Assembly: GCA_044892525.1 (NCBI GenBank)
Contig: CM097888.1
Span: forward strand, 89,838,001 to 89,902,000
DNA from: Schmidtea polychroa
Taxonomy: Eukaryota
Direction: 5' to 3'
Length of the DNA stretch: 64,000 nucleotides
Positions 1-48,731 of this stretch are shown here, piece after piece. The position numbers and the translations under genes were made by a program. The first letter of the stretch is position 1, and every line of letters begins with the position of its first letter. The notes under the pieces were generated by a model, which was given only the letters and a program-made list of their open reading frames with translations, had not been told where the DNA came from and searched no databases.

Positions 1-2478
1 TATACCGAGCTTTTCAGTTAGCTGTTGAAATAACTGGGATTCAAACTGAGATCCCCTGTCTGTGATTATTGATTTCGGAACACCGTATCTAGAAATCCAA
101 TGTTGCAAAATTGAATTTGCTACAATTTCAGCAGAAATGTTTTTCAGAGGAATAACTTCAAACCAACGCGTTTTCCGGTCAATCATAGTTAATAAGTAAG
201 AAAAACCGCGATCAGAAGGCAAGGGGCCGACCAGGTCGATGTGAAGAATTTCGAACCTATTTCCGGTCGGATAGTGAATCATCTGTGGCTTAGTGTGTCT
301 AGTGATCTTGTGTTGTTGACAACCGATGCACTGACTCACCCACAATTTAATATCGTGCCTCATTGCTGGCCAAACCACATGTGAATGCAATAGGTTAAAG
401 GTAGCCGACAAGCCTGGATGATGTAAGTCGTGAATGGAGTGGAAAGCTAATTTCCGTAAGGAATCGTGCAAAATCGGTCTTAAAACACCTGATAAAGACG
501 AGTCAAAGTGTACTCCGTCCACGATTTCAAGTTTATCGCCAAAAGCAGCTAGATCTTTTGCCGAAGGTGGATTGTCGCGGAGGCACTGTACTGGAAATAT
601 CGGATCGTGCAATATAGCGTTGGTGCTGCGGGAAAGACAGTCTGCAATAACGTTTTCTTTGCCGGCAATGTGGCGTATTTCGCAAGAAAATTCTGAAATA
701 TAACTGATTTGCCTCTGTTGTCGTGGAGATGGGTCTTTCATTCCAAAAAGATAAGTTAGCGGTTTGTGGTCAGTGTAGATGACAAAAGGACGACCTTCAA
801 GCAAGTGCTTGAAATGTTTGATTGAAAGATATATGCCTAAGAGTTCTCGGTCGAAAGCCGAATATTTCCGTTGAGCGGAAGAAAGTTTCTTTGAGAAAAA
901 CTCTAAGGGTTCAGAAATGTCATTATGTAATTGGTGTAATACTGCACCAATAGCAACGTTTGATGCATCAGTGGTCAGACTCCAAGGTAAATCAGCATTG
1001 GGAAAATGGAGTGTTTGAATTTTCGAAAGTGCCGACTTAGCGTTTTCAAATGCACTGAGTGTGGTATCGCTCCATGACACTAAAGACTTTTTTGGTTTTG
1101 AGACGAGACCTGAAAGAGGTGACAAAATGTCAGAAACCCCTGGAATAAAACGATGACAATAGTTTATCGTTCCCAAAAAACTTCTCAGTTGTGAAACTGT
1201 TTTTGGAAGTGGGAATTTGGCTATGGTATCTAGTCTATCCGGAGGAGGTCGGATTCCATCTGCGGAAATTAAATGTCCCAGGAAACGAGTCTCGTGTTGG
1301 AAGAAGGTACACTTATCGACGTTTACCTTAAGGTTGTATTGCCGAAGTGCTGTTAAAGTTCTTGTTAGATGGGTTATATGCGTCTCTAAGTCAGGTGATC
1401 CGATTAAAATGTCGTCTATGTATGGAACTGCGAAAGGTAGGTCCATTAAGACTTGATCAATATACCTTTGAAAGGTCTGTGCAGAATTCCGAAGGCCAAA
1501 TGGCATATGCACGTACTCGAAAAGTCCGATCGGAGTTATTACGGCTGTTTTTTCTATGTCAGACTCTCGCACGGGTATCTGATGGTACGCCTTCACGAGG
1601 TCGATTGTGGAGAAAATCTTTGCCTTTGAAAGACGGTGAAGGATATCACTAACAAGCGGCATGCTATAGGAATCATGTACCGTAATAGCATTAAGGTTTC
1701 GATAGTCGCCACACGGACGGAAAGTGCCATCTTTTTTTGGGACCAGGTGCAATGGCGATGACCATGGAGATTTAGATCTCCGAATGGTACCCTCATGTAA
1801 GAGGTTAGTGAACTCGGAACGTACAAATTCGAGTTTTTCATTCGACAGTGGTCTAATTTTGCATCTAACTGGTAAAGATGAAGTTGTGTCGATCGTGTGG
1901 CAGTAAAGCGGCTTCGAAACGTCACTTATTGGCGTGTTAAAACACCTATTAATAATATCTACGGCTATTTTTGGGTGTTCGATTGTTATAACCGTTTTCG
2001 ACGGAGTAGTATTTATATCGTCCGTTCCTATCCGTTGTGGATCTTCAAAGATGTTTGAGGGAATAGTGCTGCAGTTTAATTGGTTATTTATCCTTAAAGT
2101 GCGTCCACGGCAATCGACGAGTAGTTCGTTAGCGCTTAAAAAATCAGATCCTAATATGGGGATAATAACCTCTGCTATATAAAATTTCCACTCAAATAAT
2201 TGGTCGGACAGAAATGGCAACGAGAAAGCAATTGTCTTTGAACCTAAAGTCTCAACAACACTACCGTTTGCGGCCTTCAAAGAAATATCGACAGTGTTGA
2301 GGTCTGGAAGGTACTCTTTAGGTAAGATCGACAAGCTGGAACCAGTGTCGACAAGGAATTTTAGTCTGTTGGAAGGAGACGACAATATATTAAAAGCGTT
2401 TGACTCTGCTTCTATTAAAAATAAATCTGATTTTGATGAAATTTTGCCTCCCACCTCTGCCGCTAGAAGTGGTGGCAT
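1..2478 (-). CDS. pol: pol polyprotein (protease, RT, RNase H, integrase), 3'-partial; predicted to be expressed by -1 frameshift from ORF1
   Basis: All motifs fall in one frame (codon starts divisible by 3): KFLVDTGSS (2341-2352), [10 protein letters not shown] (1411-1422), [13 protein letters not shown] (about 969), [16 protein letters not shown], integrase HHCC and [19 protein letters not shown]. Absent from the ORF track, consistent with no stop before the window edge; I spot-checked the frame, not every codon. Confidence 0.92.
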
Positions 2479-2490
2479 TATAAGTTTTTT
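2446..2490 (-). promoter_or_regulatory. -1 programmed ribosomal frameshift signal (gag-pol)
   Basis: Slippery heptamer A AAA AAC (2484-2490) in the gag frame, 7-nt spacer, then hairpin GCC-A-CCACTTCT/AGAGGTGG-GA-GGC (2446-2476). The -1 frame is the pol frame. Confidence 0.8.
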
Positions 2491-5219
2491 TGATTGTTTG
2501 CTTTAGGTTTTGTGTAATTGGAGCAGCCTTCGAAGCATTTTAAGGCTTTATCTCCAAACCTGTCGTGGTATATACACTTGTCAAGTATCTGACAGGATGG
2601 TGCTTTATCTCGCCAATTGCAACCTAAATGGCAGAACCGTGCCTTGTTACGAAACTTAAAATGGAAACGGCACAGGTTCCTGGTTGCAGGTGAAGGTGAA
2701 CGTTGACGAGTATTTTGCACCAAGTGTGATTTTTGGGCATATTGCCTGTCGTCATTTGTCCGCCTGCTGGACATGCTATTCTCAAGCTCGCTGATGCGTT
2801 TAGTGAGGCCTGTAATAGCGCAAAGTAAAGCTTCTTCGGTCGAAGGTTTTAAAGAAGAAGAAGGTAAAATTTCGGGGTTAGTGCTGCTACTTAACTGCAC
2901 AGAGCAAGTTGGTTGCGGACCAAGTGGCACGACTTCGTTAATCTTGTCGGCCATCTTTGCTAGCTCTACCACGTCTGCTGTTGACGAAAGCGCTAAAATT
3001 TGTTGTGCGTGTGGCGGTAAAGCAGACAGAAAAAATTGCCTCAAGAGTTTTTGATCCGCCGCAGCCTCCGGGTGTATTTGCGTTAGTTCCGCCATAGCGT
3101 GTTGCAAGAACTGTGATGGTTTTCTGCTGCCCAAAGTTTGCGTCTTGAAGTATTTAGTGAAGACGGCAGCTGTAGGTTCCTTAAAAATATCGAGGAATGC
3201 CGTACGCAATTCTTCATATGGGTTTTTTACGCTAGTAGGCGAAGTGCGAAGGATCACGGACGAAAGTTTACTTAATATCGTCGGCGGAATCAACGGCAAG
3301 ATGCGACAGTATTTGTCTCGTGAACTGGTTACCTCGATTCCCTCGAGTACTAGTTCGGTAGCTATCAGCCAAGTAATTGGAGAGTTATTCTCATCCAAAA
3401 AATATTGACATAAGTACGTTGATCGCTGGTTGTTGGACCTACGCTTATGTTTTGCCTGTTTGGGGTTGCTGCCTGAGTCATTCTCCGAATCGGAGGAACC
3501 GCCAGAAAGTGGCAACAAACAATGAATGACGCTGTATGGTGTCACTCCATAGTCGCCCAAGGTACGACTGTCGGAAAGGATGTTGCCGTTATACGACAAG
3601 AGAAAACGGCATTTGTGATTAGTCAATGTGCTGTAATTTTTAGAAAGACCTTTAATTGTAGTGTCTGTGTCAACTGAAACGGTTTGTGTCTTATTTGTTC
3701 CAGGGTTTTCTATTAATATTTGGAACTTTTTGGGCCCCGGTGCGGCGCTACCCTCTCGTGTGGGCTGATGCTTATTTAAATAATTTTTTATAATTTTATA
3801 TATGATATCAATAATAATATAAATCAATAATAATATAGTATAATTTAATAATAATATAATAATATAATTTAGAGGTAATCGATCTAAGGTACCTGGCGGT
3901 GCTGACACGGGCATTGCTTGATTGAGTCTCGATTCGCTGGGAGACGGTTTATTATCGTGAATAAATGGCTGTCCCGGTGCACGAGAGTTTAATGTGAAAA
4001 AATCATTATTCTGTTGCATTAAGAATTCATTTGGATTTGGTCGAAGCATGATGCGTTGTGGGGCTGTGTGTAAGACATCACTCGTTAGCAATTTGTTATT
4101 TGGTATATAATTATTGATCGGAGTCATTTTTTGACGATTTTCAACGGCAATCATCTCAGCCAATGCTTGCCGGGAAACATTAATCGAATCAAAATCTATA
4201 TCGGCTGTATCTTTATATTTCTGATCGTAATGTGAGTTCGGTTTCTCCGAGCCAAATATGCGATTTATATCCATTTCGTTTCGATACTGATACTGACCGT
4301 AGTTAAGCACACCGTTGTTGTTTGCCTGTTGATTGATGTTGTGATCGTATGACTGATTATTATTGTTGTTATTGTTGATTGCGGCGTGGTTTTGAGAATT
4401 TAACTGGTAGAAACTTTCCAGCAGAGAATTCGACGAACCAACTGAATTCAAACTGTTCATAAATGATTTCTGATCTGAAAGCCGTGACAGGGGAGATGTA
4501 GAATTCAGTGTACTGTGGAATTCAGTAATATCATTACCAGCTGAGCTATTGAAAGCACTGAATAGGGGAAATTCGGATTTAGTATCCGATGATTCAGATT
4601 GTAATTGAATACTTTTCTTGATAAATTTGAAAGACGATTTATTTATCGGGTCAGCAATTTGAAATTGACCATTTGGAATATGATTATTATCTGTGATATT
4701 TGCAGGGGTCGAAATGGAATCACCTAGAACGACTACGGGATCCAAAGAATCACGATCTGGAATTGTCTGAGTTAATTTGATATACTCTTCTCGATTCGAT
4801 GACAAAAAACAGGAATGAGCAATTATCAATTGATCTATCAGCCTATCAATATCATGGGATATAGGATTAAATTTTGATGAAAGTTTTAATTCAGAAAATA
4901 TTTTGGAAAGCATATGGAACATATGTTGACGTAATTCCGCTGTTCGTTTATGAGAAACTAACATAGATTGTATTTCCTGTAATCTGGATTTAGCAATGAT
5001 ATTAGATAAATAAGTTTCTAATTGTTCAAATCTTGAACATTGTTCTGGCACTTCTGACACCAATGTTGTGGTTGGCGTAGTCCTTTCTGGTAATTTGGCA
5101 ATCGCACGATGATAGGTTTCGCGAGTAATCCAAAATCTGGGATCAAGATTTTTTAGATTTTCTGTGTCTTCTTGAAAACTTCCGAGAATCATGAAAATTG
5201 ATTTAGAAAACGGGAACAT
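2478..5219 (-). CDS. gag: ORF1, 913 aa: about 500-aa unknown N-terminal extension, hydrophobic stretch, ubiquitin-like domain (aa 499-574) and CsRn1-type Gag with two CHCC knuckles
   Basis: Gag core (PITWL...DKYC...PYEELR...[10 protein letters not shown]...FLSALP...LAKMADKI); knuckles CRFH-x9-C-x3-C (2619-2672) and CIYH-x9-C-x3-C (2523-2576); Ubl at 3498-3725. The first ATG lies inside the LTR, so the true start may be further downstream. Confidence 0.88.
5049..5062 (-). promoter_or_regulatory. Primer-binding site complementary to the tRNA-Leu 3' end
   Basis: TGGTGTCAGAAGTG, one base after the LTR-terminal CA; matches the known tRNA-Leu PBS prefix TGGTGTCAGAAGTGGG over 14 nt. Confidence 0.85.
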
Positions 5220-6409
5220 GTCCGATTATACAATTTCAATAAGCTGTTATTAATACGATCAGGATAAGTATATTATTTCAAAATCAAAATCCAAATATAG
5301 CGATCAAGATTGAAAACGAATTATAATTCTCAAAAAACAACTACAATTGTAATATTTTAAAACACCCAGTTTATTCATTTAACTAAAACAAAAGAGATTT
5401 AAATCAATTGTGTATAAATTTTAGAAAAGTAATTAAAACTGGAACAACTGAATTGGCAGTAATTAATATAGAAATAATTTTCTAGGTAAGCAATCAAATG
5501 TAGGAAAGCGAAAATTATTACTAGAATTTCATGAAAGATTGCGGTATTAAAATGAAGTAAAATAAGAACAGACTAAATAACTGGTTTAGATTTATTAATT
5601 TCTTCTTTTATATCTAATTCATTGATAGGGAGCGACCAATAGTTGACATCGATATAATCCTCCAAAGCATAATCAATACCCAAATTTGCCGAGTATTGAT
5701 TGGAATTGAAAGAATTGGTCGGCGACATCGAAAAGATTTCCATAACTCGTTGACCACTTTTGACAGTATTCGTTTTTCAATGAACCTTCAGGATTGACAG
5801 TAAATATCCGTTTCGGATCTATTCCGACAGCTTGGTAAGCAATGACGTCGTTGATACTGTTACCGAAACCGGCATACAGAGGATGGACACAATCGGAAAA
5901 AAGTGATCGAACATCATTTAGACATCATTGGATTTTGAAATATTCCGGTTTCTTTTCAATGACTTCTCGATGCAATGATTGGAAAAGCGATGTTGGCGAA
6001 AGAAGAATCGGGTCTTCTGGAAGTTTATCGGAAAACTCCTGGACGATATCCTGGAGAAACGTTCGAGTAATTCCTGCTTGTCCGACAGCTCGTGCGGATA
6101 AATAAATGAATCGATAGTTGTTTTGAAAGATTTTGTTTTACAGTTTCACTACTCCAGCTTGCGTCCAATCACGGCCTGGTATTGGTAGAACATGGCATCG
6201 AATTTTCTTTACTCGTCTGAGATTGATCAATAGAGCCTGATTGATAAGTAGAAGTATTAGCTGATCGCACGAATTTTGATTGACTATAATTGTGCTCTGA
6301 TTGGTCCTTATTCGTTGGTGACCGCGCATTTATATATATAATATAATATAATATAATATAGTATAATAGGTATATAGATATTGTGAAGGCCGTGTAACGG
6401 CTCACTACA
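5064..6409 (-). repeat. 5' LTR, 1346 bp
   Basis: Termini TGTAGTG / CACAACA (6 of 7 inverted match), immediately followed by the PBS; TATATAAA (about 6329-6337), CCAAT motifs, and AATAAA at 5370-5375. The partner LTR is outside the window. Confidence 0.78.
5573..6197 (-). pseudogene. LPIN: Lipin (phosphatidate phosphatase, C-LIP/LNS2 domain) C-terminal fragment, intronless and disabled, located inside the LTR
   Basis: Translation: [39 protein letters not shown]...[37 protein letters not shown]...PLYAGFGNSINDVIAYQAVGIDPKRIFTVNPEG...DVADQFF/...DVNYWSLP. Stops at 6138-6140 and 5925-5927, one frameshift near 5710; the DxDxT catalytic motif is missing. Confidence 0.9.
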
Positions 6410-7473: not shown

Positions 7474-9723
7474 TCATGAAAAATCATGAAACGTAATATA
7501 ATGATAAAAATTGTAGGGAAACATTATGGAATCTGAGTCCTATTTATTTGACTCATTTGAGGAAACTCGTATAGAAATGAGGAATACATTAAAATCTCAG
7601 CAGACTGCGACTGCTTTTGTTTTCTCTCTCCCAGTTCCGCTTGACGTGTTAATTACTCCATTGTAGCCAGCCGGCGAGCGGCGCACAGAGTTACCCTAGC
7701 TCCCAACCTTTAATGGAACAATAACTCAATTAGCAAACGCGTTGTCATTTATCTGAAAAAACAAAAAAAAATACAACTTTCTATCCGAAGCATTTGAAAG
7801 GCAACAAAAATGAAATTGTTATTTTAGCCGGTATTGCTGGTTGTCAACGCTCGAATTTCCTACTGGAATATCGTCATAAAATCTGCCTTATTTTGCCGAC
7901 TATCTCGCATGATCACGTTTGAGCTTGTATTATGAGTATTAATTATCCTTTCGATATTAATCTACCGATGAGATCGGTTTACATCTCGGCTGAAATAATT
8001 TTGTACACATTTCTCCCTCAATGGCAAAACTCAATGTCAAATCTCCTCATCCTGCCGAATGGGAACAATGATTTGCACTCGCCTCGTACTCTCTACCGTC
8101 GACAGGTACTAATGATTCTTGTCTCTTTCAGACCGAGATGACAACAGAAAAAATAGTCGTTGTCGTATATTGAAACCGGTCTTGATGTTCTCGTCGATGA
8201 AAATGGGCTAATTAAAATCGAAATTGAGTTTTCCATCTCATTTACCGACCAACGAAGAAAAGACATATTTTCCTCCCGCGCTTCTCGACTGGGAATGAAT
8301 AATTGTTGCATATTTGATGATAATTGGGAATAATGGTAATTAACCTTTGACTCGTTTCTAATGCTGCAAACTTACCGACCAGTTTGAGCGGAGGGGGGGG
8401 GGGGCAATAATGTTTCATGAAATTCGCAAATGACACAATCGATGAAATGTGCCTCCCCATCGAATTGCAGAAATTAGGAAATAATTTATATTAAGAGAAA
8501 AATACTCAATTAATTGCCTCATATGTTTTTTGTCGGGAAATCATTTAGCTAGAAGGTTTATGAATTATAAAAACACTTTTAAGGGTTCACAACTTATTTA
8601 TTGAAAGATTGCAAGGAAAGGGAGAGGGGAGAATTCATTTGAGGAGATAAATATAAAACAAAAGAAAAATTGCAAGTGATTTTCATAATTAACTCTTTCG
8701 CACCGACTTTCCGCTAATGACACTATGCTAAATTTATATATTGGAACTTGTTAATATTGACCTAAATATGAAATATTCTCATTTTTGTAATCGTGGCGCT
8801 TCTGAATATCCTAGAAAGTCCTGGGATAATAAGTCCCAATAGGCTTTATGGACCATTTGAAAATATCCCAGTAGGATCATGATGAAAGTTTCTGGGACGT
8901 ATTGTCCCAATAGGGGCGAAAGGGTTAAAGTGCTTTGAATGGTTTGTGAATTTACAAATATAATCACATGGAAAATGCTTGGGACAAAATATGCTTAGGA
9001 CATTTGGGAACTATTGTCAAGTAACTCTAAAACAGAATATAAAACCTTATCATGCTCTCCATTATTGAAAACTCCTCTGATAAAACAATATATTTTGAAA
9101 TAAAATATTTAAAATATTAACACAACTTAGTTGAATAACCCTAGGGTCCGCCATTTTGATTTGTGAAATATGTTGGCGTATGAGGGAGAAGAAAACTGTA
9201 CATACATAACCGTCGTACATGCAAGACCTCATCGTTTAGCTCAAACACTTCCCATGCATACTCCAAATGATCATCCGAATATTCCCACGCATGAGCCCGT
9301 GGTGATGTTCCACGTTGGTACTGCCCACACGGGTTGGAGTTGGCTAACAGGTGAGCCCCTACCTTAGGACTACTGATAACCCACTCGCGGTTCAGGTTCT
9401 AAGGTGCCTCAGAAGGACTTACCCGTATTCCCATAGGTAACTTGGTTCGATCCTGGTCCAAGGGAACGACCATCGATAAGATTTATCTGCACTCCCCATC
9501 ACATTCATCATCTACTCACATCACTCCGTCATACCTGTCGACAACTATCAAACAAAGAAAATCACCTAATTATATTAAACTCAACACAAAACGATATTCT
9601 ACAATCATAAATTGTCAGCATGCAAGTCAATTACACATATATGAAGGTAAAATCAGTGAGTCTAAATGTACAGGTGGGTTTGTCATTTGATCTAAAGAGT
9701 CGGAATCGATGCAAGCCGCGTTA

Positions 9724-10482
9724 TTAGAAAACGTCTCCTTCCGCGAATATTTCATCGATGTCTACCGGTAGGCGGTGGTCCGAGACGAATTTGATACCTT
9801 CGGCCGGTACCACTCGAAAAACTTCCTTGGAGGGAACAGTATGAGTGGAAGAGATTTCCTGGATCGTCGACTTCGCCGCCGATAGCGACGCTTCTAGGGC
9901 TGCCATCGCCTCTCTGCGCTTTTGGTTCTTTGCCGCTCGAGTTGGGCGTTTCCGTTTCCGGGATGGCTGATTAGCCTCCACTACCGGGGTATTGCCCGAG
10001 GCCACAAGAACTGGGGCCAGAATAGGATCAGACGAGCCGCCGGACATTGGAAGATAACCTGACAAGATTGGGGCTGGTACGGGTGGTAAATGAGAGCTAT
10101 GTCCTTGGCAACTCGTGGCAGATGGTCGGGATAACTGGTGGTGGAGTGGGAAAACGTTTGTCCCATCCACGACGGGAAATTCCCGTACCCGCTTGGCTAA
10201 TTCTGCCTCCGTATAGACCTTGTGGAGGGCTTCTGACTGGGCTTTGATTGTGAGCCGTTGGCAACGACTTTCCTCCAACAGGCTATCCCTGCAATGCTCT
10301 AGTCGCAGTATTTTACTACGCTCCTCCTTCATTTGTGGCGGGGAGAACCACGTACCTTCGTAAAGGTCAATTCTCTTTTTCAGTGCCCCGATGTAGAGTT
10401 GAAGCTGCGCGATGTCAGCATTTTTATCAGCGCAGGAAAGACAAGGGCGAAGAGCATTTCCAGATTGGATGGGTGTAGTCAT
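9724..10482 (-). CDS. Orphan intronless 252-aa ORF: CxxC, predicted coiled coil, Pro-rich linker with LPMSGGSSD, basic NLS-like stretch; probably belongs to a mobile element
   Basis: Long stop-free ORF, more GC-rich than its flanks; RPCLSC, heptad-like IAQLQLYIGALKKRI, SRKRKRPTRAAKNQKRR. No family recognised. Confidence 0.55.
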   Translation of the reverse strand: MTTPIQSGNALRPCLSCADKNADIAQLQLYIGALKKRIDLYEGTWFSPPQMKEERSKILRLEHCRDSLLEESRCQRLTIKAQSEALHKVYTEAELAKRVREFPVVDGTNVFPLHHQLSRPSATSCQGHSSHLPPVPAPILSGYLPMSGGSSDPILAPVLVASGNTPVVEANQPSRKRKRPTRAAKNQKRREAMAALEASLSAAKSTIQEISSTHTVPSKEVFRVVPAEGIKFVSDHRLPVDIDEIFAEGDVF

Positions 10483-13400
10483 TCTAGAATTTTAATCAAT
10501 AGTTTATGTTTATATCATTCCCTCATATTCACAATTATTTAGTTACAACACATTCAGACAAATTTTACTCAGTCTAGAGACTTTGAAAAGAAAACGGGGA
10601 AATGCTTGAAAATTAATTCATTTGGCCTAAAATCACCATTTAATTTAAGGTGGATGGTTCCCACCTATTACTCCCTTTTGATTATTAGTAATTATGAATT
10701 CTATATCTTTACTTTTCGAGAAAATAATAATTGAACAATCCAACTCTTAGCATCGTGGATAGTTGATTTGGGTATGCCCCCTGTTGTAGGGTTAGAAAAT
10801 CAGTAGCATTTATATTTATTTGGGTGGAATCAGTCCTGATGAATGAAAATATTGCGAACTATATTAATATATTTAAGAATTAAAATATAATATTTTCCAA
10901 AAACGCGCCATGCTCGTTGTCGTGGTGACACCTACGCGTGTGTGTTTGTATGTCGCGTTTCGTCTCTACGACGCGGCTTATCATGCTTACTGGATCAGTC
11001 TAGACTCTAGACTCATGCCCTTCAAGCAAATTCATCTATCCACTCTCTCGCCCTTACACACCGTTCTACTATACTGAGCAATTCCGATTACGCAATGATG
11101 ACGTCACAATGTAATTTAACATCCAGATTGATTATCATCCTACTGAGATGCATTCTATTTTAAGGCGTGATAATGTGTGAATTTCCGAGACACAGTCGAT
11201 TTAGATTTCTATTAGAAGTTTGATGAGTAACAACATTCTAGATGGTAGACGACCAATTCGGGGAATAATGGGTGAACTGGTGTTGGCAACCTAAGTTTTA
11301 TCGTGCGGACGACTCAAGATAATCACTCGTCAGTGCATCAAGTGAATAAGTCAGTACGGAAATTGGTATCTTATCATTCCTACCAGATTCCCGTCGGTCG
11401 TTTAATTCTATTAGCCACAGTCTGACTGAAATTCATTTATCAATTATCTGACAACCTCGACCGCGGCTTCCCAATGCAATTAACAATTTGCCGATAACAC
11501 TGTCAGTAGTTGCCCACATCTCTATCGTCGATAGTCAGATAATTGCTCATAATTTATTTACCTTATTTGCAGAAAACGGTACTTATCAGCAATCCGAATG
11601 TCAACAATCAAGGCTAAAAGTACATCCCCTATGGATTTCATCGCTAACGTGCTGGCGATCCAAATCAGACGATATCTTATGAATTTACTATGCTGCAGAA
11701 AAACAGTTGGATTTAATCGCAAACGGTGATCATCGAGATTCTTTCTTAGCTACTCTGATCGTCAGGCTGATTTTCCTGAAAGATTCTCCTCAATCTATGT
11801 GAAGTTTCGTTGGATCTAGCTAAATACTTATATCGATCTAATCCGGATTAACCTCTGTTGGTAATTCAAGCTTCCTATACGAATATCAGAAATCTCGATA
11901 CAAAAGAACGAAATGATAGAATATCCTCCTAACGATCGCGCTGAGTGAAGGCAAATTTTTACTCCGCAACTGGATTTTTCATCTACCGAGTCTCATCACC
12001 CCTCATGACACACCCAAGAAGGCATTCATTTCTGCCGCCATTCTTGCACCGTCATGAGGGACCAATCAACTCCTTTACATTCAAAAATTTAACGTTCGTA
12101 TATAAATATAATAATGATAGAATAAATGATGAGCAAAATAAACAAATCGAAATATCCGGCGACCATATCGTCTGGGCTCCAAGTATGATGCTTTTCCCTT
12201 TTTCGATCATATAGTCAATTTCAGCATTAGCAAACATCTTATTGATTATTATCACCTTCTCCAGTTCCAATATCTTCGCAACATCTCCTAGATGCGTGTC
12301 ATAAAAACTCCTCGTGGCTACTTCCTCCATTTGGCATCATACTTGAAATCACCAGGGGGTATAGTCGTCGGCACCATGAAGAAAGGCAGTTTTTATTTTC
12401 AAATAAATTTATTAAATGAAATTATTCTTATTATTTACAAAAAATTTATTAAAGTCAATCATAAATATCTATTAAATTCAATCATATAAAACTAATCCAT
12501 AAATAACTTAACATACTTCGAGGTTTGAAAAACTGGAGTTAATCGGTTAACGCGAAGGTTTTCGTGAGTAAGTTTACTGAGCTTCTTCCTAAAATCGATT
12601 TGGTTGTTTTTGAAATTAGTCCTTCGTAGTAGTTCGTAAGTCAAGTTCTGTAATCGTGAAAATTAAAGTGGTTCCTGAATGTCGTCCTGTAGAGTTTGGT
12701 TAAAAGTGGTGGTGAACAAATTAACAAATTTTACCTGTAGAGTTTGGTTAAAAGTGGTACTCTACTAATTTTTCGCGTTTCTTATATACTATTTTTCGTC
12801 CAATCAGGACTCAGTTAGGTTGTAATTTTTAATATTTATTATTATTTTATGTTTTTATTATAATATATTAGCTTTTAATAACTTAACTTATTTGTTATTA
12901 TTATTTTATTTATTTTCTTATTTTTCTTATTTTTCTCCTATTTTTTCTGCGGGTTCACTGCTACTTTATCGTAATACAATTTTTTGTTTTAAATAAACTT
13001 AAAGATATTTTTATTTTTTATTTATTGTTTTAATTTCTCGTTTATTTTCTCTCGCTTTTTTGCTTATTCTATTTCTACTTTATCTATTGTGCTTTAACTC
13101 ATATCTCTTATGTCCTATTTCTAATTCTTAAGGGTTTTATTTATTTATTACTTATTCTTATTTCTTTTTATGGGTATTTTATTGTTTCCTTATTTACTAT
13201 TGAGGTTTGATGGTAATTTATTTTTTATTATATTTCGTTTATTTTTTTGAGGTTCGTTTCCCGATTCAGCCCAGTTTTTCTCTACTTCAAAATTTAGCCC
13301 AACAAATAAATGAAAATATCATATTTATCTTTTAGATTTTTTTTAATTCAATAATTTTCATATTAATATTTGTAAGACATTAATTCAAAATAATATAATA

Positions 13401-21350: not shown

Positions 21351-22360
21351 GTCAGGTTAATAATTATTTATCATGCCAGCTTTAACCTGTGAAAAAATCA
21401 ATTAATATACAAACAGAATTTATAAAAGCAGTTGTCATGAGAATGTTGATTTACAACTTGGTTATACCCATATACACCAAACACCACTGAGATACGTTCT
21501 CTATAGTGGTGGTTGGCGTGTAAAGCTATTCACTCACCAATATTCATTACAACTAGAGATCAGATTATTTTTTACTACAGATTTGTTATCGCATTGTTAG
21601 ATTTTGTTTTTTCCTATACTTCTTGATAACCTTTTGTTGTATAACCCCTATTCTTCTTATTATGAATAGTTATGAATATTCAAATTTATTTAAAATCGAT
21701 ATCGGGCATTATACAATTATACATATTTTTTGATTAATTTTTTTTTATCTTGGGTTTTTCCAACATTGTTTGAGCACATCCATTAAAAATGTGTTTAAAT
21801 TACTTGCCAACCCTTACGGACGCTCATGTTTGTTAACCAATCTTAGATTAATTATTATAATAAATTAATTTCTTCATAGTGACTGTTTTTGTCGATCTTG
21901 GTTCACCTTTTCTTGTTTATAATAAATCATTTTATAAATTGATTTTCTAAAGATGTGGCGCAAAGTACACGCTGGAAATGCCTAGAGCTTTCCGTATTCG
22001 ACTCAATGAACACATTAAATACAAAATCAGCAATTACTGTCAACAATGAGAAATAGAACATAAAATGGCCTCATACATTTACAAGACTAAATTCCAATGA
22101 AATTCCCTTACAAAGCTAGCGATAAAATTGCGATTTTTTCTTTTCATTTCAAGCCTCCGCAATTTCTGATGAATTATTATTTTAATTTTGATGATCTTGC
22201 ATAGGGTACCTATTTGGATGAACTTAGCAACTGTTATTGCATGAAATTTCTATGAATAAATTTAATTTATTTTTCATTTTCAGATGTGTTAAAGCTTGGT
22301 CAGACCAAGTACTACATCTCACTCCCATTGTATGACCCCTCTAACACCATATAGCCTATT

Positions 22361-23989
22361 ATGAATCAAACCTTAAATTCAGGATTAGTTGATTCACCAA
22401 TGTCGTTTTTTGAAACCTCCGTTATTCTATTCTTTTCAATAATTTTGAGCATCGTAACTATTGGAGGAAATTTGTTAGTGTTGTGTTCCTTTTATTTGGA
22501 GCCTGGTTTGAGGGTCTCGTCCAATTACTTCATTGCTTCTTTGGCAGTTACAGACTTATTAATTGGATTGTTTTCGATGAACCTTTATACCGTCTATATC
22601 GTTCTTAAATCGTGGCCACTAAGTCAACTCATGTGTGATTTGTGGCTGTCAATGGACTATACGGCCTGCCTGACCTCCCAATATACGGTATTCCTGATTA
22701 CAGTTGACCGATTTTGCTCCATCAAGATGCCAATGCGATACAATAAATGGAGAAGTGATCGGATTATATTTTTCATGATATTTTTAACGTGGTTCATTCC
22801 GTCTGTTATGTTCTATTCAATTATAATGAGTTGGCCTTACGTTGTTGGCCGGCAAAGAGGTACAAATGAATGCTATGCAGAATTCTCAATTAAACCTGTC
22901 TTTATTACTATTCTTACAGTCTGTTACTTTTGGATAACTCTCGTCGTTATGATCGGGCTTTACATTGGAATATATCAAGTTGCTCTGACTCTCCAAAGAA
23001 GATCTGACGCAAGAAAAGCAAAAGTTAATAAATATTTTCTTCTATCTTTGACAAATCGGCAAACGAATCAAATAATCAAAAATGAGAAAGAAATTGGGTC
23101 GGATTCGAGCAAGGATGATGAAATTGATACAAGTTCATGCAAAACTAATGACTACGACTCGGAGAGTTTGAGGCATTCTCATTCAAGCTGCTTCATTTTA
23201 TACTCGGGCCAACTTCCAAATATCGAATCCCCTCTTTTATGTGAAGATAATCCCAAACACTCTAGAAACAATTCTCCAGTTTATCAGTGCAATAATTTCC
23301 TTAGCCGAACAATTTCATTCCAAACTCAGGTGAAGTATGGATCTGAGGAGATTCATCATCATTGTCATTGTAACATTCATCACAACAACTCGACCTTATT
23401 TTGTCTTCATCACAACAATTGTACCAAAATACCTGGTTACCAATTCATTGACGTGGAAAACCTCAAGTCTTCATTTAACATAAATTTAACGGACCTTGAA
23501 AATTCAGGAAAAACTCTAAAACTTTGCTCCTCACCGATTTGGAAGCAGCAGCATCCAGTGGAATCGAATTGCAAAAATGACACCAAATATCTCTCCAATG
23601 AAATAGATGATAAAGCAACCTCTTTTACTTTGAAGTCGCCATTGCAAAAGGTTGCGAAAAAGTTCTATGGAGCTCTGCAGAAAACGAAAGGGGTGCAAAG
23701 TACGATTACTCAAAATCGAAATCGTGCTAAAAAAGCTCTGAAAACGATCAGTTTTATTTTGGGAGCTTTTATAATTTGCTGGACCCCTTTTCATGTGGTC
23801 ATCCTTATCAAGGCTGCTTGTGATGATCACTCTTTGAACCGTTCATGCATGAATGAGCACATTTATCGTCTTGCTTATTGGTTGTGCTATATTAACAGTC
23901 CTATCAATCCATTTTGCTATGCTTTGGCAAACACTCAAATTAAAGAAGCATTTTTTAGAATTCTTTCTTGTAAAAAGCACCAAAGATAA
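22361..23989 (+). CDS. Muscarinic acetylcholine receptor, invertebrate type-B / GAR-1/GAR-2-like class A GPCR (542 aa, single coding exon)
   Basis: 7TM signatures: GNLLV, NYFIASLAVTDL, CDLWLSMDYTACLTSQYTVFLITVDRFCS (D3.32; type-B-like TM3), long ICL3, KALKTISFILGAFIICWTPFHV, YWLCYINSPINPFCYALAN. In-frame TAG just upstream of the ATG; splice acceptor TTTCAG at 22283 (5'UTR intron). Confidence 0.9.
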   Translation: MNQTLNSGLVDSPMSFFETSVILFFSIILSIVTIGGNLLVLCSFYLEPGLRVSSNYFIASLAVTDLLIGLFSMNLYTVYIVLKSWPLSQLMCDLWLSMDYTACLTSQYTVFLITVDRFCSIKMPMRYNKWRSDRIIFFMIFLTWFIPSVMFYSIIMSWPYVVGRQRGTNECYAEFSIKPVFITILTVCYFWITLVVMIGLYIGIYQVALTLQRRSDARKAKVNKYFLLSLTNRQTNQIIKNEKEIGSDSSKDDEIDTSSCKTNDYDSESLRHSHSSCFILYSGQLPNIESPLLCEDNPKHSRNNSPVYQCNNFLSRTISFQTQVKYGSEEIHHHCHCNIHHNNSTLFCLHHNNCTKIPGYQFIDVENLKSSFNINLTDLENSGKTLKLCSSPIWKQQHPVESNCKNDTKYLSNEIDDKATSFTLKSPLQKVAKKFYGALQKTKGVQSTITQNRNRAKKALKTISFILGAFIICWTPFHVVILIKAACDDHSLNRSCMNEHIYRLAYWLCYINSPINPFCYALANTQIKEAFFRILSCKKHQR

Positions 23990-35285: not shown

Positions 35286-38200
35286 AAATAAATGCAGCAC
35301 CAAGTTGTTCACCCGCCAGTGGTGGTGAATGTCCAGTGGATGAGTGAGTGAATGTCCCGCCAGTGGATGAGGGAGTGAATGGCCGACCAGTGGATGAGGG
35401 AGTGAATGGCGGTCATCAACCACCAGCAGCACCAGGTGGTATTGAAGCGGTGCTGCAAGGTATTTTTTTTTATATATAATATTTTTAATAATTTTTTTAG
35501 TGCATCCTGTACAAGTTGTTCACCCGCCAGTGGATGAGGGAGTGAATGTCCCGCGAGGTGGATGAGGGAGTGAAATTAATTTTTTTAGTTCATCCTGTAC
35601 AAGTTCACTCGCCAGTGGTGGTGGCTGTCGGCCAGAAGCACCAGGTAGGAGCTTCTTGGTGTATTATACAGTGATAATGTGTTTACGCCTCAGACACATC
35701 ATAAGAATTTCTTTGTAATTAATCGCATCACACGCTTTATTTGTGCAAAACCATTTAACGTGTCCAATAACTTGAGATTGAGCCATGATTGAATTGGAAA
35801 CATTGGATAATTGTTCAACACTTTGGCTTGTAAACATTTGAATTGTGTTAATCCTTGTAAGAGCTCGATTAAATAGAATATCATATTCATAAGTTAGCAA
35901 GTTTATCTTTTTATCGCTAATTAAATCATTGATTTCCAATCGTTTTGATAAACTTTGAAAAATTGAATTAATGTAAATTAGAAATTTTGAAATATAAACG
36001 AATTCATAAAAATCTTGATTATCTATGACATTTACATTACTTCCATTAATAATTTCAACGATCTTGTTGAGTCATGGACGAGTTTCACTGCTGAAAAGAC
36101 ATCTCTTCGCTATATTGCTCATTGAAATACGACATATCAAACATTCATTATCTTCCATATTTCACTAAGGCCGAAAATTCAAAACTGAATTACCAAAATT
36201 ATAAATCATTTATAAATTACAAATCATTTTCAAAATCGATCGAATTTCAAAAACACAAAAAAATCTGACTCGATCAAAACTCAACTCATAATAATCACAA
36301 TTGTCCGCGTCTGTGTGCGCACACAAAAGACTCCAAAAACCAGTACAAAGCGCACACAGGCGCGAGAACCGATAATCAACTCACAAAAAACGGCACTAAT
36401 CGCGTCTGTGTGCGCACACAAACCCAATCTCAAATGTAAACAGAGAACGCACACAAACGCGACAAACTAGTAATTAACCATAATGAATATGTTCAAAAGA
36501 GCAACCATTGCTGATTTATAACCCATCATACTTAAAGCCCCATCAGTAGAAATTCCAGACAACAAATTAATATTTATTCTATTTTCATCAACTGAACTAC
36601 ATAGGGCTTCAAAAATGTGTCAATTCCTCTTGTGGTTCCCTTTAAACTTTCAAGTCATAAGAACATAAATAAGACATAAATAAGACATAAATCGCAGGAT
36701 TAATCGATATTAATATTATAATTATTTTAATTTTTAGCAATACAACAGCAAATGCAAGCAATGCAAATAATGGAAATAAATTGTATTAATTGCTGCAACC
36801 AGCCTGGGGGCATAGATTGTGAGATAGATCACTCCGCTTTGATTAATAAATTTCACTGTTAATAAAAGTTCACTGTCACATTTGCTCCAGGATTGAACGT
36901 GCCTCCGCGCCGGCGCGGCACATTAAAAGGAGTATATTTTATTTTAGATGAAAGGATTAATCGATTAATGGAAAATAATTGCATAAGTTGTTGCAATCAG
37001 CCTGGGGCAAACAATTGTCCCAATGACCATTGTCAATTGATTAAGTACATTGTCACATTTGCTCCAGGATTGTACGTGCCTCCAGGCTGGCGCGGCACAT
37101 TAAAAGGAGTAATTTATTTTTTTATTATATATATTTTATTTAATTTTTTTAGTGCATCATTCCCGCCAGGGGTGGTGCCTACCCCGACAAGTGAGCATAA
37201 CACGACAGGGGAGGATAACCCGACAGGGGAGGATAACCCGACAGGGGAGGATAACCCGACAGAGGAGCATAACCCGACAGGGGAGCATAACCCGACAGGG
37301 GAGGATAACCCGACAGGGGAGGATAACCCGACAGGGGAGGATAACCCGACAGGGGAGCTTAACCCGACAGGGGAGGATAACCCGACAGGGGAGGATAACC
37401 CGACAGGGGAAGATAACGAAAGGATTATTCGATTAATGGAAAATAATTGCATAAGTTGTTGCAATCAGCCTGGGGCAAACAATTAAAAGGAGTAATTTAT
37501 TTTTTTATTATATATAATATTTTAATTAATTTTTTTAGTGCATCGTGCCCCGCCAGGGGTGGTGCCTACCCCGACTGTAAAGATTTTATTGTTAAACCAA
37601 GTAAATTGGTCAACTAAACCCTGGATAATTAACAGAAAATTAAAAAGACATTACTCTAAAAGTAAACCATAAATTAATTTAATGCATTCATCACATCCTA
37701 ATATTAAATCCATTAAATCCTCATTAAATCCAACCGACTATATCCCCCTTAAAAATCATATATTCTACCTTAACCGATCACTCATTAAATCATACCGACT
37801 ATATCCCTTGAGGTTATATTCAATCCTCTTAAAATCCTTAGAGAATTCTTCAAAAATATGAATTTTCTTTAACTTACAGACACCATAATTAATAATTCAA
37901 ATGGGTGAAAACAAGCGGTAGAACTATTCATTAATGGATTATGGGAGGTAAATACTGAGAAGTGGCTTAGATAAGATGGAGATGTATTAATTGAATTTAT
38001 TTAAATTATTTCATAAAAATTATCACTTTAATGAAAGTATTTTAAAAAGAAATATTTTTGTGAGGAGGATATAAGTGAAAATAATTAGTTGAATATAAGT
38101 GATTAAATAATAATTAGTGGAATATAGAAAATCGGGGGAATATAAGTGAGAAGGATTTTCTATAAGCTTCGGCATTGTTTATCATCATGGATTTTGTTGT

Positions 38201-41200
38201 TTATCATTCATGGGCATTACATTCATGCTCTCATCCTATCATCAAAATATTAAAACAAATTTAGACAGAATTATTTGAATATGAGGAATGAGGAATGCTC
38301 CAATTCATTTCACAACAATAATTATTATATATTAACTTAATTTCAATGATAAAATAATATCAGAATCCAGCAAGTATTTAGCACATGCAATGACAACTGG
38401 GAGACTTTTGATGAGTTCATTTTTGATTTTTAGGTCATCCAGAAGTTATTCAACCAAAAGTTATTATTATCAGTGAACCACCAGCAGCAGCACCAGTTGG
38501 TATTGAAGCGCTGCTGCAACAACTGCGAGTTGAGATAGCAGGAGACCAACAACAAACGGTAGCTGCCCGTGAGCAGAGATAGCAGGAGACCAACAACAAA
38601 TGCGAGTTATAAATGAATTGCCAATGTCAGATGATCGAACAATTAAATCATGCAATAGCTGGAGGTTGCATTTGCCTGTTGCAACGAAGCAGGTCGCAAT
38701 AGATCAGGTGACAATAGCAGCTGCTCGAGAACATACATAATTCATAAATATCGCCAACTTATAAACTCCTCTGATTCATTAACCACCATAAAATATTTCT
38801 AATTTTCTATTATTATTATTAATATTAATATTAGTTGCTGCAACCAGCCTGGGGGGGGGGGGGGGCAACGACCAAGTGATAGAAGCAATTAAAAAATTCA
38901 ATAAATCTAAGGTACGTTGCCCCGCGTGCCAAAGGATTTTACGTACCTCCGGGCTGGAGTGGCACTTAAAAAAGAGTAATTTATTTTTTTTTATATAATA
39001 TTTTAATTAATTTTTTTAGGGCATCCTGTGAATGAGGTGATCCAGCCAGGGAGAGAGAACCAGGGAGAAGAAGGGAATGGCCCGCAGGTGGAAGAGCAAG
39101 GAAATGGCCCGCAGGTGGAAGAACAAGGGGGGCAACGACCAAGTGATAGAAGCAATTAAAAAATTCAATAAATCTAAGGTACGTTGCCCCGCGTGCCAAA
39201 GGATTTTACGTACCTCCGGGCTGGAGTGGCACTTAAAAAAGAGTAATTTATTTTTTTTTATATAATATTTTAATTAATTTTTTTAGGGCATCCTGTGAAT
39301 GAGGTGATCCAGCCAGGGAGAGAGAACCAGGGAGAAGAAGGGAATGGCCCGCAGGTGGAAGAGCAAGGGAATGGCCCGCAGGTGGAAGAGCAAGGGAATG
39401 GCCCGCAGGTGGAAGAACAAGGGAATGGCCCGCAGGTGCAAGAACAAGGGAATGGCGGTCTCCCATCAGGTGGTGGTATTGGTCAGCCACCAGCAGGTGG
39501 TATTGATCAGCCGCCAGTAGCACCAAGTGGTATTGAAGCGGCGCTACGAGGTATTTCTAAAATTTAAAAATATTATAATTATTATAATTTTTAGCTATAA
39601 ATGATAGGCTGAATATCATGGCAGCAGATATGGCACCTAGATTTGCAGGTAATTTATATTTATTATATAATATTTTAATTAATCTTTTCAGTGCATGCTG
39701 AGGTGGTCCCGCGAGGGGAGCATAACACGACAGGGGAGCATAACCCGACAGGGAGTGAATTACCAATGTGGAATGTTCGATCAAATTAACGAAGCAATCC
39801 AAAGAAATTGCATGAATTGCTGCCACCAGCCTGGTGTTGGACCTTGTCCAACAGGTCATCTGGAGATGATTAAAAAAATTAATCATTCCAAGGTGCATTG
39901 CACACAGTGCACCAGGATTGTACGTGCCTTCGGGCTGGCGCGGCACATTAAAAGGAGTAATTTATTTTTTTATTATATATATTTTATTTAATTTTTTTAG
40001 TGCATCATTCCCGCCAGGGGTGGTGCCTACCCCGACAAGTGAGCATAACACGACAGGGGAGGATAACCCGACAGGGGAGGATAACCCGACAGGGGAGGAT
40101 AACCCGACAGGGGAGGATAACCCGACAGAGGAGCATAACCCGACAGGGGAGCATAACCCGACAGGGGAGGATAACCCGACAGGGGAGCTTAACCCGACAG
40201 GGGAGGATAACCCGACAGGGGAGGATAACCCGACAGGGGAAGATAACGAAAGGATTATTCGATTAATGGAAAATAATTGCATAAGTTGTTGCAATCAGCC
40301 TGGGGCAAACAATTAAAAGGAGTAATTTATTTTTTTATTATATATAATATTTTAATTAATTTTTTTAGTGCATCGTGCCCCGCCAGGGGTGGTGCCTACC
40401 CCGACTGTAAAGATTTTATTGTTAAACCAAGTAAATTGGTCAACTAAACCCTGGATAATTAACAGAAAATTAAAAAGACATTACTCTAAAAGTAAACCAT
40501 AAATTAATTTAATGCATTCATCACAACCTAATATTAAATCCATTAAATCCTCATTAAATCCAACCGACTATATCCCCCTTAAAAATCATATATTCTACCT
40601 TAACCGATCACTCATTAAATCATACCGACTATATCCCTTGAGGTTATATTCAATCCTCTTAAAATCCTTAGAGAATTCTTCAAAAATATGAATTTTCTTT
40701 AACTTACAGACACCATAATTAATAATTCAAATGGGTAAAAATAAGCGGTAGAACTATTCATTAATGGATTATGGGAGGTAAATACTGAGAAGTGGCTTAG
40801 ATAAGATGGAGATGTATTAATTGAATTTATTTAAATTATTTCATAAAAATTATCACTTTAATGAAAGTATTTTAAAAAGAAATATTTTTGTGAGGAGGAT
40901 ATAAGTGAAAATAATTAGTTGAATATAAGTGATTAAATAATAATTAGTGGAATATAGAAAATCGGGGGAATATAAGTGAGAAGGATTTTCTATAAGCTTC
41001 GGCATTGTTTATCATCATGGATTTTGTTGTTTATCATTCATGGGCATTACATTCATGCTCTCATCCTATCATCAAAATATTAAAACAAATTTAGACAGAA
41101 TTATTTGAATATGAGGAATGAGGAATGCTCCAATTCATTTCACAACAATAATTATTATATATTAACTTAATTTCAATGATAAAATAATATCAGAATCCAG

Positions 41201-42569
41201 CAAGTATTTAGCACATGCAATGACAACTGGGAGACTTTTGATGAGTTCATTTTTGATTTTTAGGTCATCCAGAAGTTATTCAACCAAAAGTTATTATTAT
41301 CAGTGAACCACCAGCAGCAGCACCAGTTGGTATTGAAGCGCTGCTGCAACAACTGCGAGTTGAGATAGCAGGAGACCAACAACAAACGGTAGCTGCCCGT
41401 GAGCAGAGATAGCAGGAGACCAACAACAAATGCGAGTTATAAATGAATTGCCAATGTCAGATGATCGAACAATTAAATCATGCAATAGCTGGAGGTTGCA
41501 TTTGCCTGTTGCAACGAAGCAGGTCGCAATAGATCAGGTGACAATAGCAGCTGCTCGAGAACATACATAATTCATAAATATCGCCAACTTATAAACTCCT
41601 CTGATTCATTAACCGCCATAAAATATTTCTAATTTTCTATTATTATTATTAATATTAATATTAGTTGCTGCAACCAGCCTGGGGGGGGGGCAACGACCAA
41701 GTGATAGAAGCAATTAAAAAATTCAATAAATCTAAGGTACGTTGCCCCGCGTGCCAAAGGATTTTACGTACCTCCGGGCTGGAGTGGCACTTAAAAAAGA
41801 GTAATTTATTTTTTTTTATATAATATTTTAATTAATTTTTTTAGGGCATCCTGTGAATGAGGTGATCCAGCCAGGGAGAGAGAACCAGGGAGAAGAAGGG
41901 AATGGCCCGCAGGTGGAAGAGCAAGGAAATGGCCCGCAGGTGGAAGAACAAGGGGGGCAACGACCAAGTGATAGAAGCAATTAAAAAATTCAATAAATCT
42001 AAGGTACGTTGCCCCGCGTGCCAAAGGATTTTACGTACCTCCGGGCTGGAGTGGCACTTAAAAAAGAGTAATTTATTTTTTTTTATATAATATTTTAATT
42101 AATTTTTTTAGGGCATCCTGTGAATGAGGTGATCCACCCAGGGAGAGAGAACCAGGGAGAAGAAGTAATGGCCCGCAGGTGGAAGAGCAAGGGAATGGCC
42201 CGCAGGTGGAAGAACAAGGGAATGGCCCGCAGGTGCAAGAACAAGGGAATGGCGGTCTCCCATCAGGTGGTGGTATTGGTCAGCCACCAGCAGGTGGTAT
42301 TGATCAGCCGCCAGTAGCACCAAGTGGTATTGAAGCGGCGCTACGAGGTATTTCTAAAATTTAAAAATATTATAATTATTATAATTTTTAGCTATAAATG
42401 ATAGGCTGAATATCATGGCAGCAGATATGGCACCTAGATTTGCAGGTAATTTATATTTATTATATAATATTTTAATTAATCTTTTCAGTGCATGCTGAGG
42501 TGGTCCCGCGAGGGGAGCATAACACGACAGGGGAGCATAACCCGACAGGGAGTGAATTACCAATGTGGA

Positions 42570-43492
42570 ATGTTCGATCAAATTAACGAAGCAATCCAAA
42601 GAAATTGCATGAATTGCTGCCACCAGCCTGGTGTTGGACCTTGTCCAACAGGTCATCTGGAGATGATTAAAAAAATTAATCATTCCAAGGTGCATTGCAC
42701 ACAGTGCACCAGGATTGTACGTGCCTCCGGGCTGGCGCGGCACATTAAAAGGAGTAATTTATTTTTTTATTATATATATTTTATTTAATTTTTTTTGTGC
42801 ATGTTGAGGTGATCCCGCCAGGGCCGACAGATAACCAGAGAGAAGATCAAGTAGAGATTGTAGCGAATGACCCGCTAGTGGATGAAGAAGTGAATGGCGG
42901 TCCCCTAGCAGGAGGTGGTATATATACTTTATAAATATTATAATTATTTTAATTTTTAGGAATGCAAAATCAAATTAATGAAATGGAGCAAAATGTGGGA
43001 CAACAAATAGTTCAACAAATAGCAGCTGCCCAGCAACAAATAGGTCAACAAATGGCTGCCCTGCGAGCAGATATTGCAGCAGATATGGCACCTAGATTTG
43101 CAGGTAATTTATATTTATTATATAATATTTTAATTAATCTTTTCAGTGCATGCTGAGGTGGTCCCGCGAGGGGAGCATAACACGACAGGGGAGCTTAACC
43201 CGACAGGGGAGCATAACCCGACAGGGGAGCATAACCCGACAGGGGAGCATAACACGACAGGGGAGCATAACCTTGCGGTGCTGCAAGGTATTTATAAAAT
43301 TTATAAATATTATAATTATTTTAATTTTTAGCTATTCAACAAATGAAAGGCAGGCTGGATGGCATGGCAGCTGCCCAAAATGGCATGGCAGCTGCCCAAA
43401 ATGGCATGGCAGCTGCCATAAACGAAATAAATGGAAGACTTGATGCTCTTGAGGCGAGTGTCGGTGCACTGGATAATTGTTTTCGAAATTGA
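42570..43492 (+). CDS. Spliced model join(42570-42753,42798-42917,42960-43103,43147-43287,43332-43492), 249 aa: Zn module, acidic linker, Q-rich coiled coil, (EHNPTG)n, heptad (GMAAAQN)n coiled coil
   Basis: Four phase-1 introns (44, 42, 43 and 44 nt) keep the frame open to TGA at 43490. The first acceptor is TG rather than AG (42796-42797), so this copy may be broken or miscalled. Confidence 0.55.
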
Positions 43493-44426
43493 AAGGGGAG
43501 CATAAGCCGACAGGGGAGCATAACCCGACAGGGGAGCATAACACGACAGGGGAGCATAACCCGACAGGGGAGCATAACCCGACAGGGGAGCATAACCCGA
43601 CAGGGGAGGATAACCAGACAGGGGAAGATAACGAAAGGATTATTCGATATTAATATTATAATTATTTTAATTTTTAGCAATACAACAGCAAATGCAAGCA
43701 ATGCAAATAATAGAAATAAATTGTATTAATTGCTGCAACCAGCCTGGGGGCATAGATTGTGAGATAGATCACTCCGCTTTAATTAATAATTTTTCACTGT
43801 TAATAAAAGTTCACTGTCACATTTGCTCCAGGATTGTACGTGCCTCCGGGCTGGCGCGGCACATTAAAAGGAGTATATTTTATTTTAGATAAAAGGATTA
43901 TTCGATTAATGGAAAATAATTGCATAAGTTGTTGCAATCAGCCTGGGGCAAACAATTGTCCCAATGACCATTGTCAATTGATTAATCAATTTAATCAATC
44001 TAAAGTACATTGTCACATTTGCTCCAGGATTGTACGTGCCTCCGGCCTGGCGCGGCACATTAAAAGGAGTAATTTATTTTTTTATTATATATATTTTAAT
44101 TAATTTTTTTAGTGCATCGTTCCCGCCAGGGGTGGTGCCTACCCTGACAAGTGAGCATAACCCGACAGGGGAGGATAACCCGACAGGGGAAGATAACGAA
44201 AGGATTAATCGATATTAATATTATAATTATTTTAATTTTTAGCAATACAACAGCAAATGCAAGCAATGCAAGCAATGCAAATAATGGAAATAAATTGTAT
44301 TAGTTGCTGCAACCAGCCTGGGGTGGGCAACTGCCAAGAAAATCACAGCGAGGTGATTAAAAAATTTAACCAGTCAAAAGTAACAATAAATATTTTTAAA
44401 AATATTAAAATTTGTTTTTATTTTAG

Positions 44427-48541: not shown

Positions 48542-48731
48542 ATAAGAGTTTTTCAAGATCGTCTAAGGAAGTATTTCTATTACCACCTTTAATTCTTTCC
48601 ATAGAATTAGATTGGTAACATTTGCCATCTTTCATGTATTTAACAACTTATTACAATATTTAAAATAGTTATATTAAAATATTAAAAATAACAATAAATA
48701 TTTTTAAAAATAATATTTGTTTTTATTTTAG

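Follow-up and report, generated by a model that had tools for sequence, protein, structure and literature searches.

A ubiquitin-like domain ending in Gly-Gly ahead of Gag in a Ty3/gypsy retrotransposon of Schmidtea polychroa, a probable site of cleavage by a host protease

The element and its first open reading frame

A 64,000-nucleotide stretch of Schmidtea polychroa DNA (assembly GCA_044892525.1, contig CM097888.1, positions 89,838,001 to 89,902,000; the whole stretch is called the window, and features are given as window positions on the minus strand unless another strand is stated) carries a young Ty3/gypsy long terminal repeat (LTR) retrotransposon, in which a ubiquitin-like (Ubl) domain ending in Gly-Gly (GG) precedes Gag within one open reading frame (ORF1). 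The element is 8.8 kb long and, when the neighbouring stretch is read too, has two LTRs of 1346 bp that are 99.6% alike, with TG...CA ends and a 5-bp target-site duplication (GTTAG); the 5' LTR occupies 5064..6409, the 3' LTR is beyond the window, and the primer-binding site (5049..5062) is presumably of the tRNA-Leu type. The pol region (1..2502) extends past the window and, once the neighbouring stretch is included, is a single open frame of 1129 codons with Pfam matches for protease, reverse transcriptase, RNase H and integrase in that order, the protease match being weak (E 0.013); a preliminary description of this DNA had judged Pol to look intact. Where gag and pol overlap (2484..2490), the heptamer A AAA AAC is, from its sequence and position, likely to be a -1 frameshift site. 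About 90 near-identical copies (92-100% over nearly the whole Ubl-Gag query) were found among 150 scored of 538 candidates, and 58 copies were compared. In 54 of these the primer site could be recognised, and 32 of them keep an open frame between it and the end of gag.

ORF1 (2481..5219) encodes 913 aa, and its first ATG (5219) falls within the 5' LTR. From this start the frame runs through the primer site, which is read as LVSEV, through host-gene pieces, the Ubl ending in LSGG and a 29-residue linker into Gag. The Ubl (3498..3725, ORF1 residues 499-574, FQILIENPG...HCLLPLSGG) can be aligned with ubiquitin chains up to GG and matches the Pfam ubiquitin family with E 4.5e-11 and 42.8 bits (cut-off 25.4). 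It has 33% identity to host ubiquitin and a tail of LPLSGG, not RLRGG, and so is not ubiquitin proper. An AlphaFold model of the Ubl is a beta-grasp (mean predicted local distance difference test score, pLDDT, 81) with ISG15 and ubiquitin as its best matches (Foldseek E 1.5e-7, root-mean-square deviation 1.3), and a further fold comparison gave Z 14.2 and a root-mean-square deviation of 1.1 over 72 residues. The alignment behind this model contained near-ubiquitin rows; in the alignment behind a second model, of the Ubl together with Gag built on 34 relatives, such rows were 2 of 35. The second model gave the Ubl a pLDDT above 90, with disorder beginning at GG, and predicted two confident helical domains in Gag followed by a long helix and a Cys/His region.

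The preliminary description had proposed a Ubl of exactly 76 aa directly in front of Gag, and had suggested modelling it in search of a beta-grasp. The fold was obtained, and the domain's place, its LSGG end and its match to Pfam all stand; the exact length is a boundary set by the alignment, in which the first residue is Phe and not Met and gaps offset one another. Nor does Gag follow directly, since a linker of about 29 residues that begins Ser-Ser-Asp and is predicted to be disordered (3411..3497; pLDDT below 50) intervenes before the helical domain. GG is thus predicted to be exposed at the edge of this linker, and the next residue, Ser, is not proline. Gag itself (2481..3410) comprises two helical domains (DUF7041; Pfam match at ORF1 aa 612-681), a coiled coil and Cys/His knuckles with conserved Cys and His; no solved capsid matched it by sequence profile and fold searches were filled by ubiquitin, and "capsid" is used here as a provisional label based on position, DUF7041 and the model. 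Between residues 437 and 708, ORF1 has no Met: neither the Ubl nor Gag possesses its own start, and translation of Gag has to pass through the Ubl.

Upstream of the Ubl, the Ile/Leu/Tyr stretch noted in the preliminary description is real (3771..3875). It is stop-free, encoded by 92% AT DNA and flanked by splice-like GT and AG, and its best 19-residue hydropathy, 2.67, is reached by 11 of 400 stop-free shuffles, which is somewhat above the expectation from base composition; it is a possible membrane helix in the window family.

Captured host sequence and selection in the leader

The LTR and the part of ORF1 before the Ubl (the leader) contain three mapped pieces of host genes. The lipin piece (5388..6196), which includes an LNS2 domain (Pfam E 4.7e-23), a stop and downstream sequence, consists of 809 bases with 97.2% identity to the host locus L141:5580-6384 and lies outside the ORF1 frame run. 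The other two are in frame: a piece of an unnamed gene (4722..5027), with 91.5% identity to L235:5189-5506 and 96-97% in other copies, and a CNOT4-like piece (3914..4515), with 94.6% identity to L138:4831-5455, where the host open reading frame matches CNOT4 2CPI at E 3e-10. All three are sense-oriented, each falls inside one uninterrupted host stretch and no intron is crossed; an RNA origin is likely. At the lipin 5' junction, the one junction with both parents at hand, an 8-nt word is common to lipin and the parent LTR. The idea that the leader is an independent protein was rejected: no homologue was found at E 0.1 among 6180 candidates, there was no Atlas or Pfam match, and the leader turned out to consist of host fragments. 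None of the records listed as containing the sequence is registered as RNA. In contigs from three putative RNA runs and one other run, the Ubl had little or no coverage and no joint across the AT-rich stretch appeared among the rows listed, a result given no weight as evidence. These contigs leave the element near 3919 and 4513, at the ends of the CNOT4-like piece, and the deep coverage of the leader therefore probably belongs to the host gene.

The LTRs vary in content: among 51 LTRs there are 12 types, which have in common only the first 215-340 bases (6190..6409 in the window element) and often a short end. The ORF1 frame reaches 45-169 codons into the LTR and is open in 32 of 33 distinct LTR ends, compared with at most 47 codons in the other frames; in 4 of those 32 ends the open LTR part lacks Met. 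The leader of the window element contains no stops in frame versus 28 and 42 in the other frames, none of 2000 shuffles was open, and no stop is common to several copies. Insertions and deletions common to at least three copies are in frame in five of five cases, those private to one copy in 8 of 19. The ratio of nonsynonymous to synonymous shared variants (pN/pS) is 1.11 and 0.55 for the leader, 0.47 for the Ubl and 0.04-0.14 for Gag, the contrast between leader and Gag having p 1e-5; private-variant counts in pol were excluded from use, being spoiled by truncated copies. Selection thus keeps the frame of the leader open but does not keep its residues. Both Gly codons of the Ubl tail are unchanged in all 55 aligned copies, and four rearranged copies that were left out also have GG; because the copies are young, this says little alone.

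Relatives and a second retrotransposon family

Relatives were sought with Gag plus 21 Ubl residues among 1.84 billion representatives, and the best 150 of 2504 matches were used. In a tree of the 135 relatives with enough capsid (15 were left out), the window element sits in a 43-row group (support 84 and 76) inside a 45-row set (98 and 96), the two extra rows of which lack the Ubl-GG trait. Of the group members, 35 have at least 50 upstream residues, and GG precedes the capsid by 12-48 residues in all 35 of them, versus 4 of 32 outside the group. The Ubl tail is conserved across the whole group; the preliminary description had asked whether Ubl-GG is conserved in genomic copies and relatives. 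The median identity among the Ubls of relatives is 16%, and their tail has the consensus hydrophobic-x-hydrophobic-[R/K]-[L/I]-x-G-G, with Leu or Ile four residues before the predicted cut in 35 of 37 and Arg or Lys five before it in 28 of 37. Directly behind GG, 30 of 37 tails have a small residue (compared with 121 of 370 linker positions), 0 of 37 have Pro (37 of 370) and 1 of 37 has Asp or Glu (99 of 370), contrasts that overstate significance in that kin among the relatives are not independent. Ubiquitin proteases cut poorly before Pro, and small N-terminal residues are stabilising; a small residue other than Pro after GG is thus what one would expect if a ubiquitin protease generated the new N-terminus. 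A Ubl profile built from 27 segments with the last four residues removed, and with the window and near-ubiquitin rows excluded, scored host ubiquitin at 32 bits and the window Ubl at 30, compared with at most 4.6 for shuffles and at most 2.7 for outside proteins. Two relatives have Ubls with 71-75% identity to ubiquitin, which suggests fresh replacement.

The leaders of relatives range from 39 to 952 residues. Among 39 proteins scanned, host domains are recognisable in the leaders of four: histone H2A, 5'-nucleotidase, cohesin HEAT, and CNOT1 with Rrp44. The primer-site peptide LVSEV is read through in five distant relatives and in none outside the group. For the metagenome relative P0003, no encoding locus was found among 586 candidates. 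An older, decayed gypsy subfamily in the same genome (L051-L074) has a Ubl with about 45% (42-47%) identity and GG in 10 of 13 readable tails, typically PIYGG. The building of leader and LTR from captured host genes and the lineage-wide order of Ubl, GG and Gag go beyond the preliminary description.

A high-copy BEL/Pao family with a DUF1759 Gag (150 scored of 1026 candidates; loci L045, L046, L049, L145-L160 and L191-L202) resembles the window element in several features: LTRs that contain host mosaics, a primer site that is read through, an AT-rich stretch and ubiquitin-like sequence ending in GG, followed by Gag. It differs in belonging to another superfamily, in its primer site and in having one or two ubiquitin-like domains at 79-87% ubiquitin identity. 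Its in-frame LTR cargo derives from genes of the Ras family, the proteasome, chaperonins and phosphatases, in some cases together with the host start Met. In 12 of 16 copies, the LTR frame stays open over the 193-290 codons that lead to the primer site. The GG next to Gag is intact in 32 of 34 copies, that of the first domain in 21 of 27. Of 19 BEL relatives taken from other sources, none has a ubiquitin family label. The layout of Ubl, GG and Gag was apparently reached twice, in gypsy and in BEL/Pao. A decayed element at L050:4817-5269, in which two ubiquitin-like repeats (LRLCGG closes the last one) precede a Gag-like region, is possibly a third family. In both the gypsy and the BEL/Pao family the AT-rich stretch (window 3771-3892; after the primer site in BEL/Pao, where it is 72-147 nt long and varies widely in sequence from copy to copy) is stop-free and lies between splice-like sites, and it may be a regulatory retained intron.

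In the Gag family at L203-L205, Gag is a plain protein of 364 aa that starts at its own ATG, and a Ubl is absent. The window ORF at 9724-10491 contains the word MSGGSS with neither a Pfam match nor a score with the Ubl profile; it encodes 255 aa, is GC-richer and lies within a GC-rich region (9000-12000). Elsewhere, the window contains a 544-aa single-frame gene on the plus strand (22355-23989) that by eye resembles an amine or muscarinic G-protein-coupled receptor, and an array (36700-49000) of repeats of 2.8-4.7 kb, which contain short Cys-rich exons as well as tandem units of 18 bp that code for NPTGED/NPTGEH. A cluster of ATPase-, integrase- and capsid-like ORFs in the joined loci L141-L142 (15100-20000), found also near L046, by eye resembles an element of the Polinton/Maverick type.

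Release of Gag and comparison with known systems

Gag is probably released from its exchangeable leader by a host ubiquitin or Ubl protease that cleaves behind GG. Release of Gag at this point, as proposed in the preliminary description, gains support from comparison, because the domain has the fold, the tail is kept, the residue after GG is biased and Gag has no start codon. In this scheme, whose enzyme, start site, cut, benefit and template-switch capture are all putative, ribosomes would start at a leader AUG, often within captured sequence, and read through the primer site and the Ubl, and cleavage after Gly-Gly (predicted after position 3498) would yield a 339-aa Gag starting with Ser, with Gag-Pol made through the -1 frameshift. 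During reverse transcription, switches of template to host RNAs that had been packaged, a process treated in PMC5131818, would refresh the LTR and leader; any in-frame product would survive, and the cut would leave the 5' region free for any in-frame cargo.

Several observations weigh against this reading. The window tail LPLSGG lacks the Arg that is read by many ubiquitin proteases, on a Ubl body with 33% ubiquitin identity. Within this young family, the Ubl is less constrained than Gag (pN/pS 0.47, p 0.03) and is not distinguishable from the leader (p 0.32), and leader insertions and deletions common to exactly two copies are in frame in one of four cases. The search may be slightly biased by its query, which included the C-terminal 21 residues of the Ubl, and the 43-row group has modest support, was bounded after the labelled tree had been viewed and contains non-independent kin. 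An internal start may serve in six group members with short protein calls that lack a leader (one begins MRLRGG), and is possible in the 12 of 35 relatives with a Met between GG and the capsid. Finally, at L239:4081-5484 a leader is fused in frame to a clipped capsid, the Ubl and capsid start being gone and pol split.

The best-surviving alternative, which is improbable, is that the leader is not translated with Gag at all, and that a spliced, trans-spliced or internally started RNA enters just before the Ubl, the AT-rich stretch serving as an intron or acceptor. GT at 3892 and AG at 3772-3771 do flank the 92% AT stretch, the BEL/Pao family has AAG/GTA and a pyrimidine-rich TAG around its variable counterpart, and the nearest in-frame ATG (3914) is just 63 codons before the Ubl. 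However, taking out either AT-rich stretch shifts the frame, the stretch is stop-free whereas only 1.7% of shuffles are, precise removal is absent in 57 of 58 matched copies, and well upstream, as far as the LTR, the frame has still been kept open; even so, Gag would follow the Ubl. A shade less plausible is a Ubl that stays as an integral domain of Gag, for binding, solubility or proteasome contact, with GG as a relic of ubiquitin capture. Many integral Ubl domains exist, and the window tail differs from that of ubiquitin, but the body has drifted to the low median identity given above while the tail motif is kept, which is the reverse of what a relic would lead one to expect, and the capsid would have to tolerate unrelated leaders over their full range of lengths.

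Cleavage by the aspartic protease that the element encodes, or by some other non-ubiquitin protease, is very unlikely: a retroelement protease normally processes Gag, and one is encoded in Pol (the weak Pfam match), but proteases of the retroviral type favour cut sites with hydrophobic residues, and ubiquitin proteases recognise just such a folded Ubl that ends in L-x-G-G. It is equally unlikely that the point of the design lies in the extra functions suggested in the preliminary description, a leader that anchors Gag to the membrane until the cut and a decoy or modifier role of the freed Ubl. In the window family and the older subfamily, the Ubl is indeed preceded by a hydrophobic stretch and then lysines, but such a stretch occurs in only 2 of 20 relatives, its BEL/Pao counterpart has a hydropathy of 0.44 to 2.51 over 16 copies, leader residues evolve near neutrally, and the Ubl would stay on the leader, with a barely conserved body and without ubiquitin's Arg72/Arg74 tail.

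With host cleavage at GG as the preferred reading, a broader proposition can be put forward tentatively, as one that may well be wrong: the gypsy lineage and, independently, the BEL/Pao family would have outsourced the start of gag, carrying swapped pieces of host mRNA, often with the host start codon, in the LTR and leader, while a host-cleaved Ubl tag delivers an unchanged Gag; the host-like 5' end could shield the elements from small-RNA silencing, and they could act as exon-shuffling engines. If the cut is real, Gag maturation would proceed by way of a host ubiquitin protease, not the element's own protease, as a feature fixed across a lineage, and uptake of host genes at the 5' end without loss of gag and pol would be explained. 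The arrangement would bear on the origin of chimeric genes and on the escape of elements from silencing, genome annotations would contain many false "ubiquitin" and host-gene copies, and the divergent Ubl tails would form a natural test panel for the recognition needs of ubiquitin proteases.

The nearest host counterparts are the ubiquitin-ribosomal protein fusions and FUBI-eS30, in which a linear ubiquitin or Ubl fusion ends in GG before a working protein. Host ubiquitin fusions were seen in this genome; these are host genes that begin with the Ubl's own Met, whereas the window Ubl is internal and has no Met. The preliminary description had pointed to Burro, and Burro/GYPSM1, likewise of the gypsy type, does have a Ubl (PF11976) in its ORF1, but it exceeds 30 kb, its Gag is N-terminal in a 4,900-aa ORF1 with the Ubl downstream among apoptosis domains, and it has an env-like region (PMC6431247). 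The window element, at 8.8 kb and with a 913-aa ORF1, Gag C-terminal after the Ubl and no env seen, disagrees in size, ORF1 length and Gag position, and its identification with Burro/GYPSM1 was rejected. In LTR-mediated retroposition (Tan et al. 2016, and Bs1 of maize cited there), partial mRNA pieces of several host genes are joined inside LTR elements and, as in the window element, are sense-oriented with short shared words at junctions; the cargo there replaced part of the ORFs and gave non-autonomous copies (PMC5131818), whereas here it lies in the LTR and leader, in frame with Gag, and gag and pol are complete. No description of a Ubl-GG before Gag was found in the literature searched, and planarian genome supplements and Repbase entries may describe these families; the available portions of PMC3118150 and PMC9289625 do not mention a Ubl-Gag fusion.

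The closest viral counterparts are the pestivirus bovine viral diarrhoea virus (BVDV) strains Osloss, CP1 and CP Rit, in which cellular hydrolases cut a captured, N-terminally extended ubiquitin (PMC8310069). There too, captured ubiquitin within a polyprotein has extra cellular sequence in front and provides the true N-terminus of the downstream protein, although the insertions are sporadic, near-identical to ubiquitin and found in single RNA-virus strains (PMC8310069). The window design, in contrast, is a fixed trait of a group of retrotransposons, at 16-33% identity, placed before Gag and behind a changing host-derived leader. By analogy, it would work like the pestivirus insertions and the ubiquitin-ribosomal fusions, and it is equal to neither.

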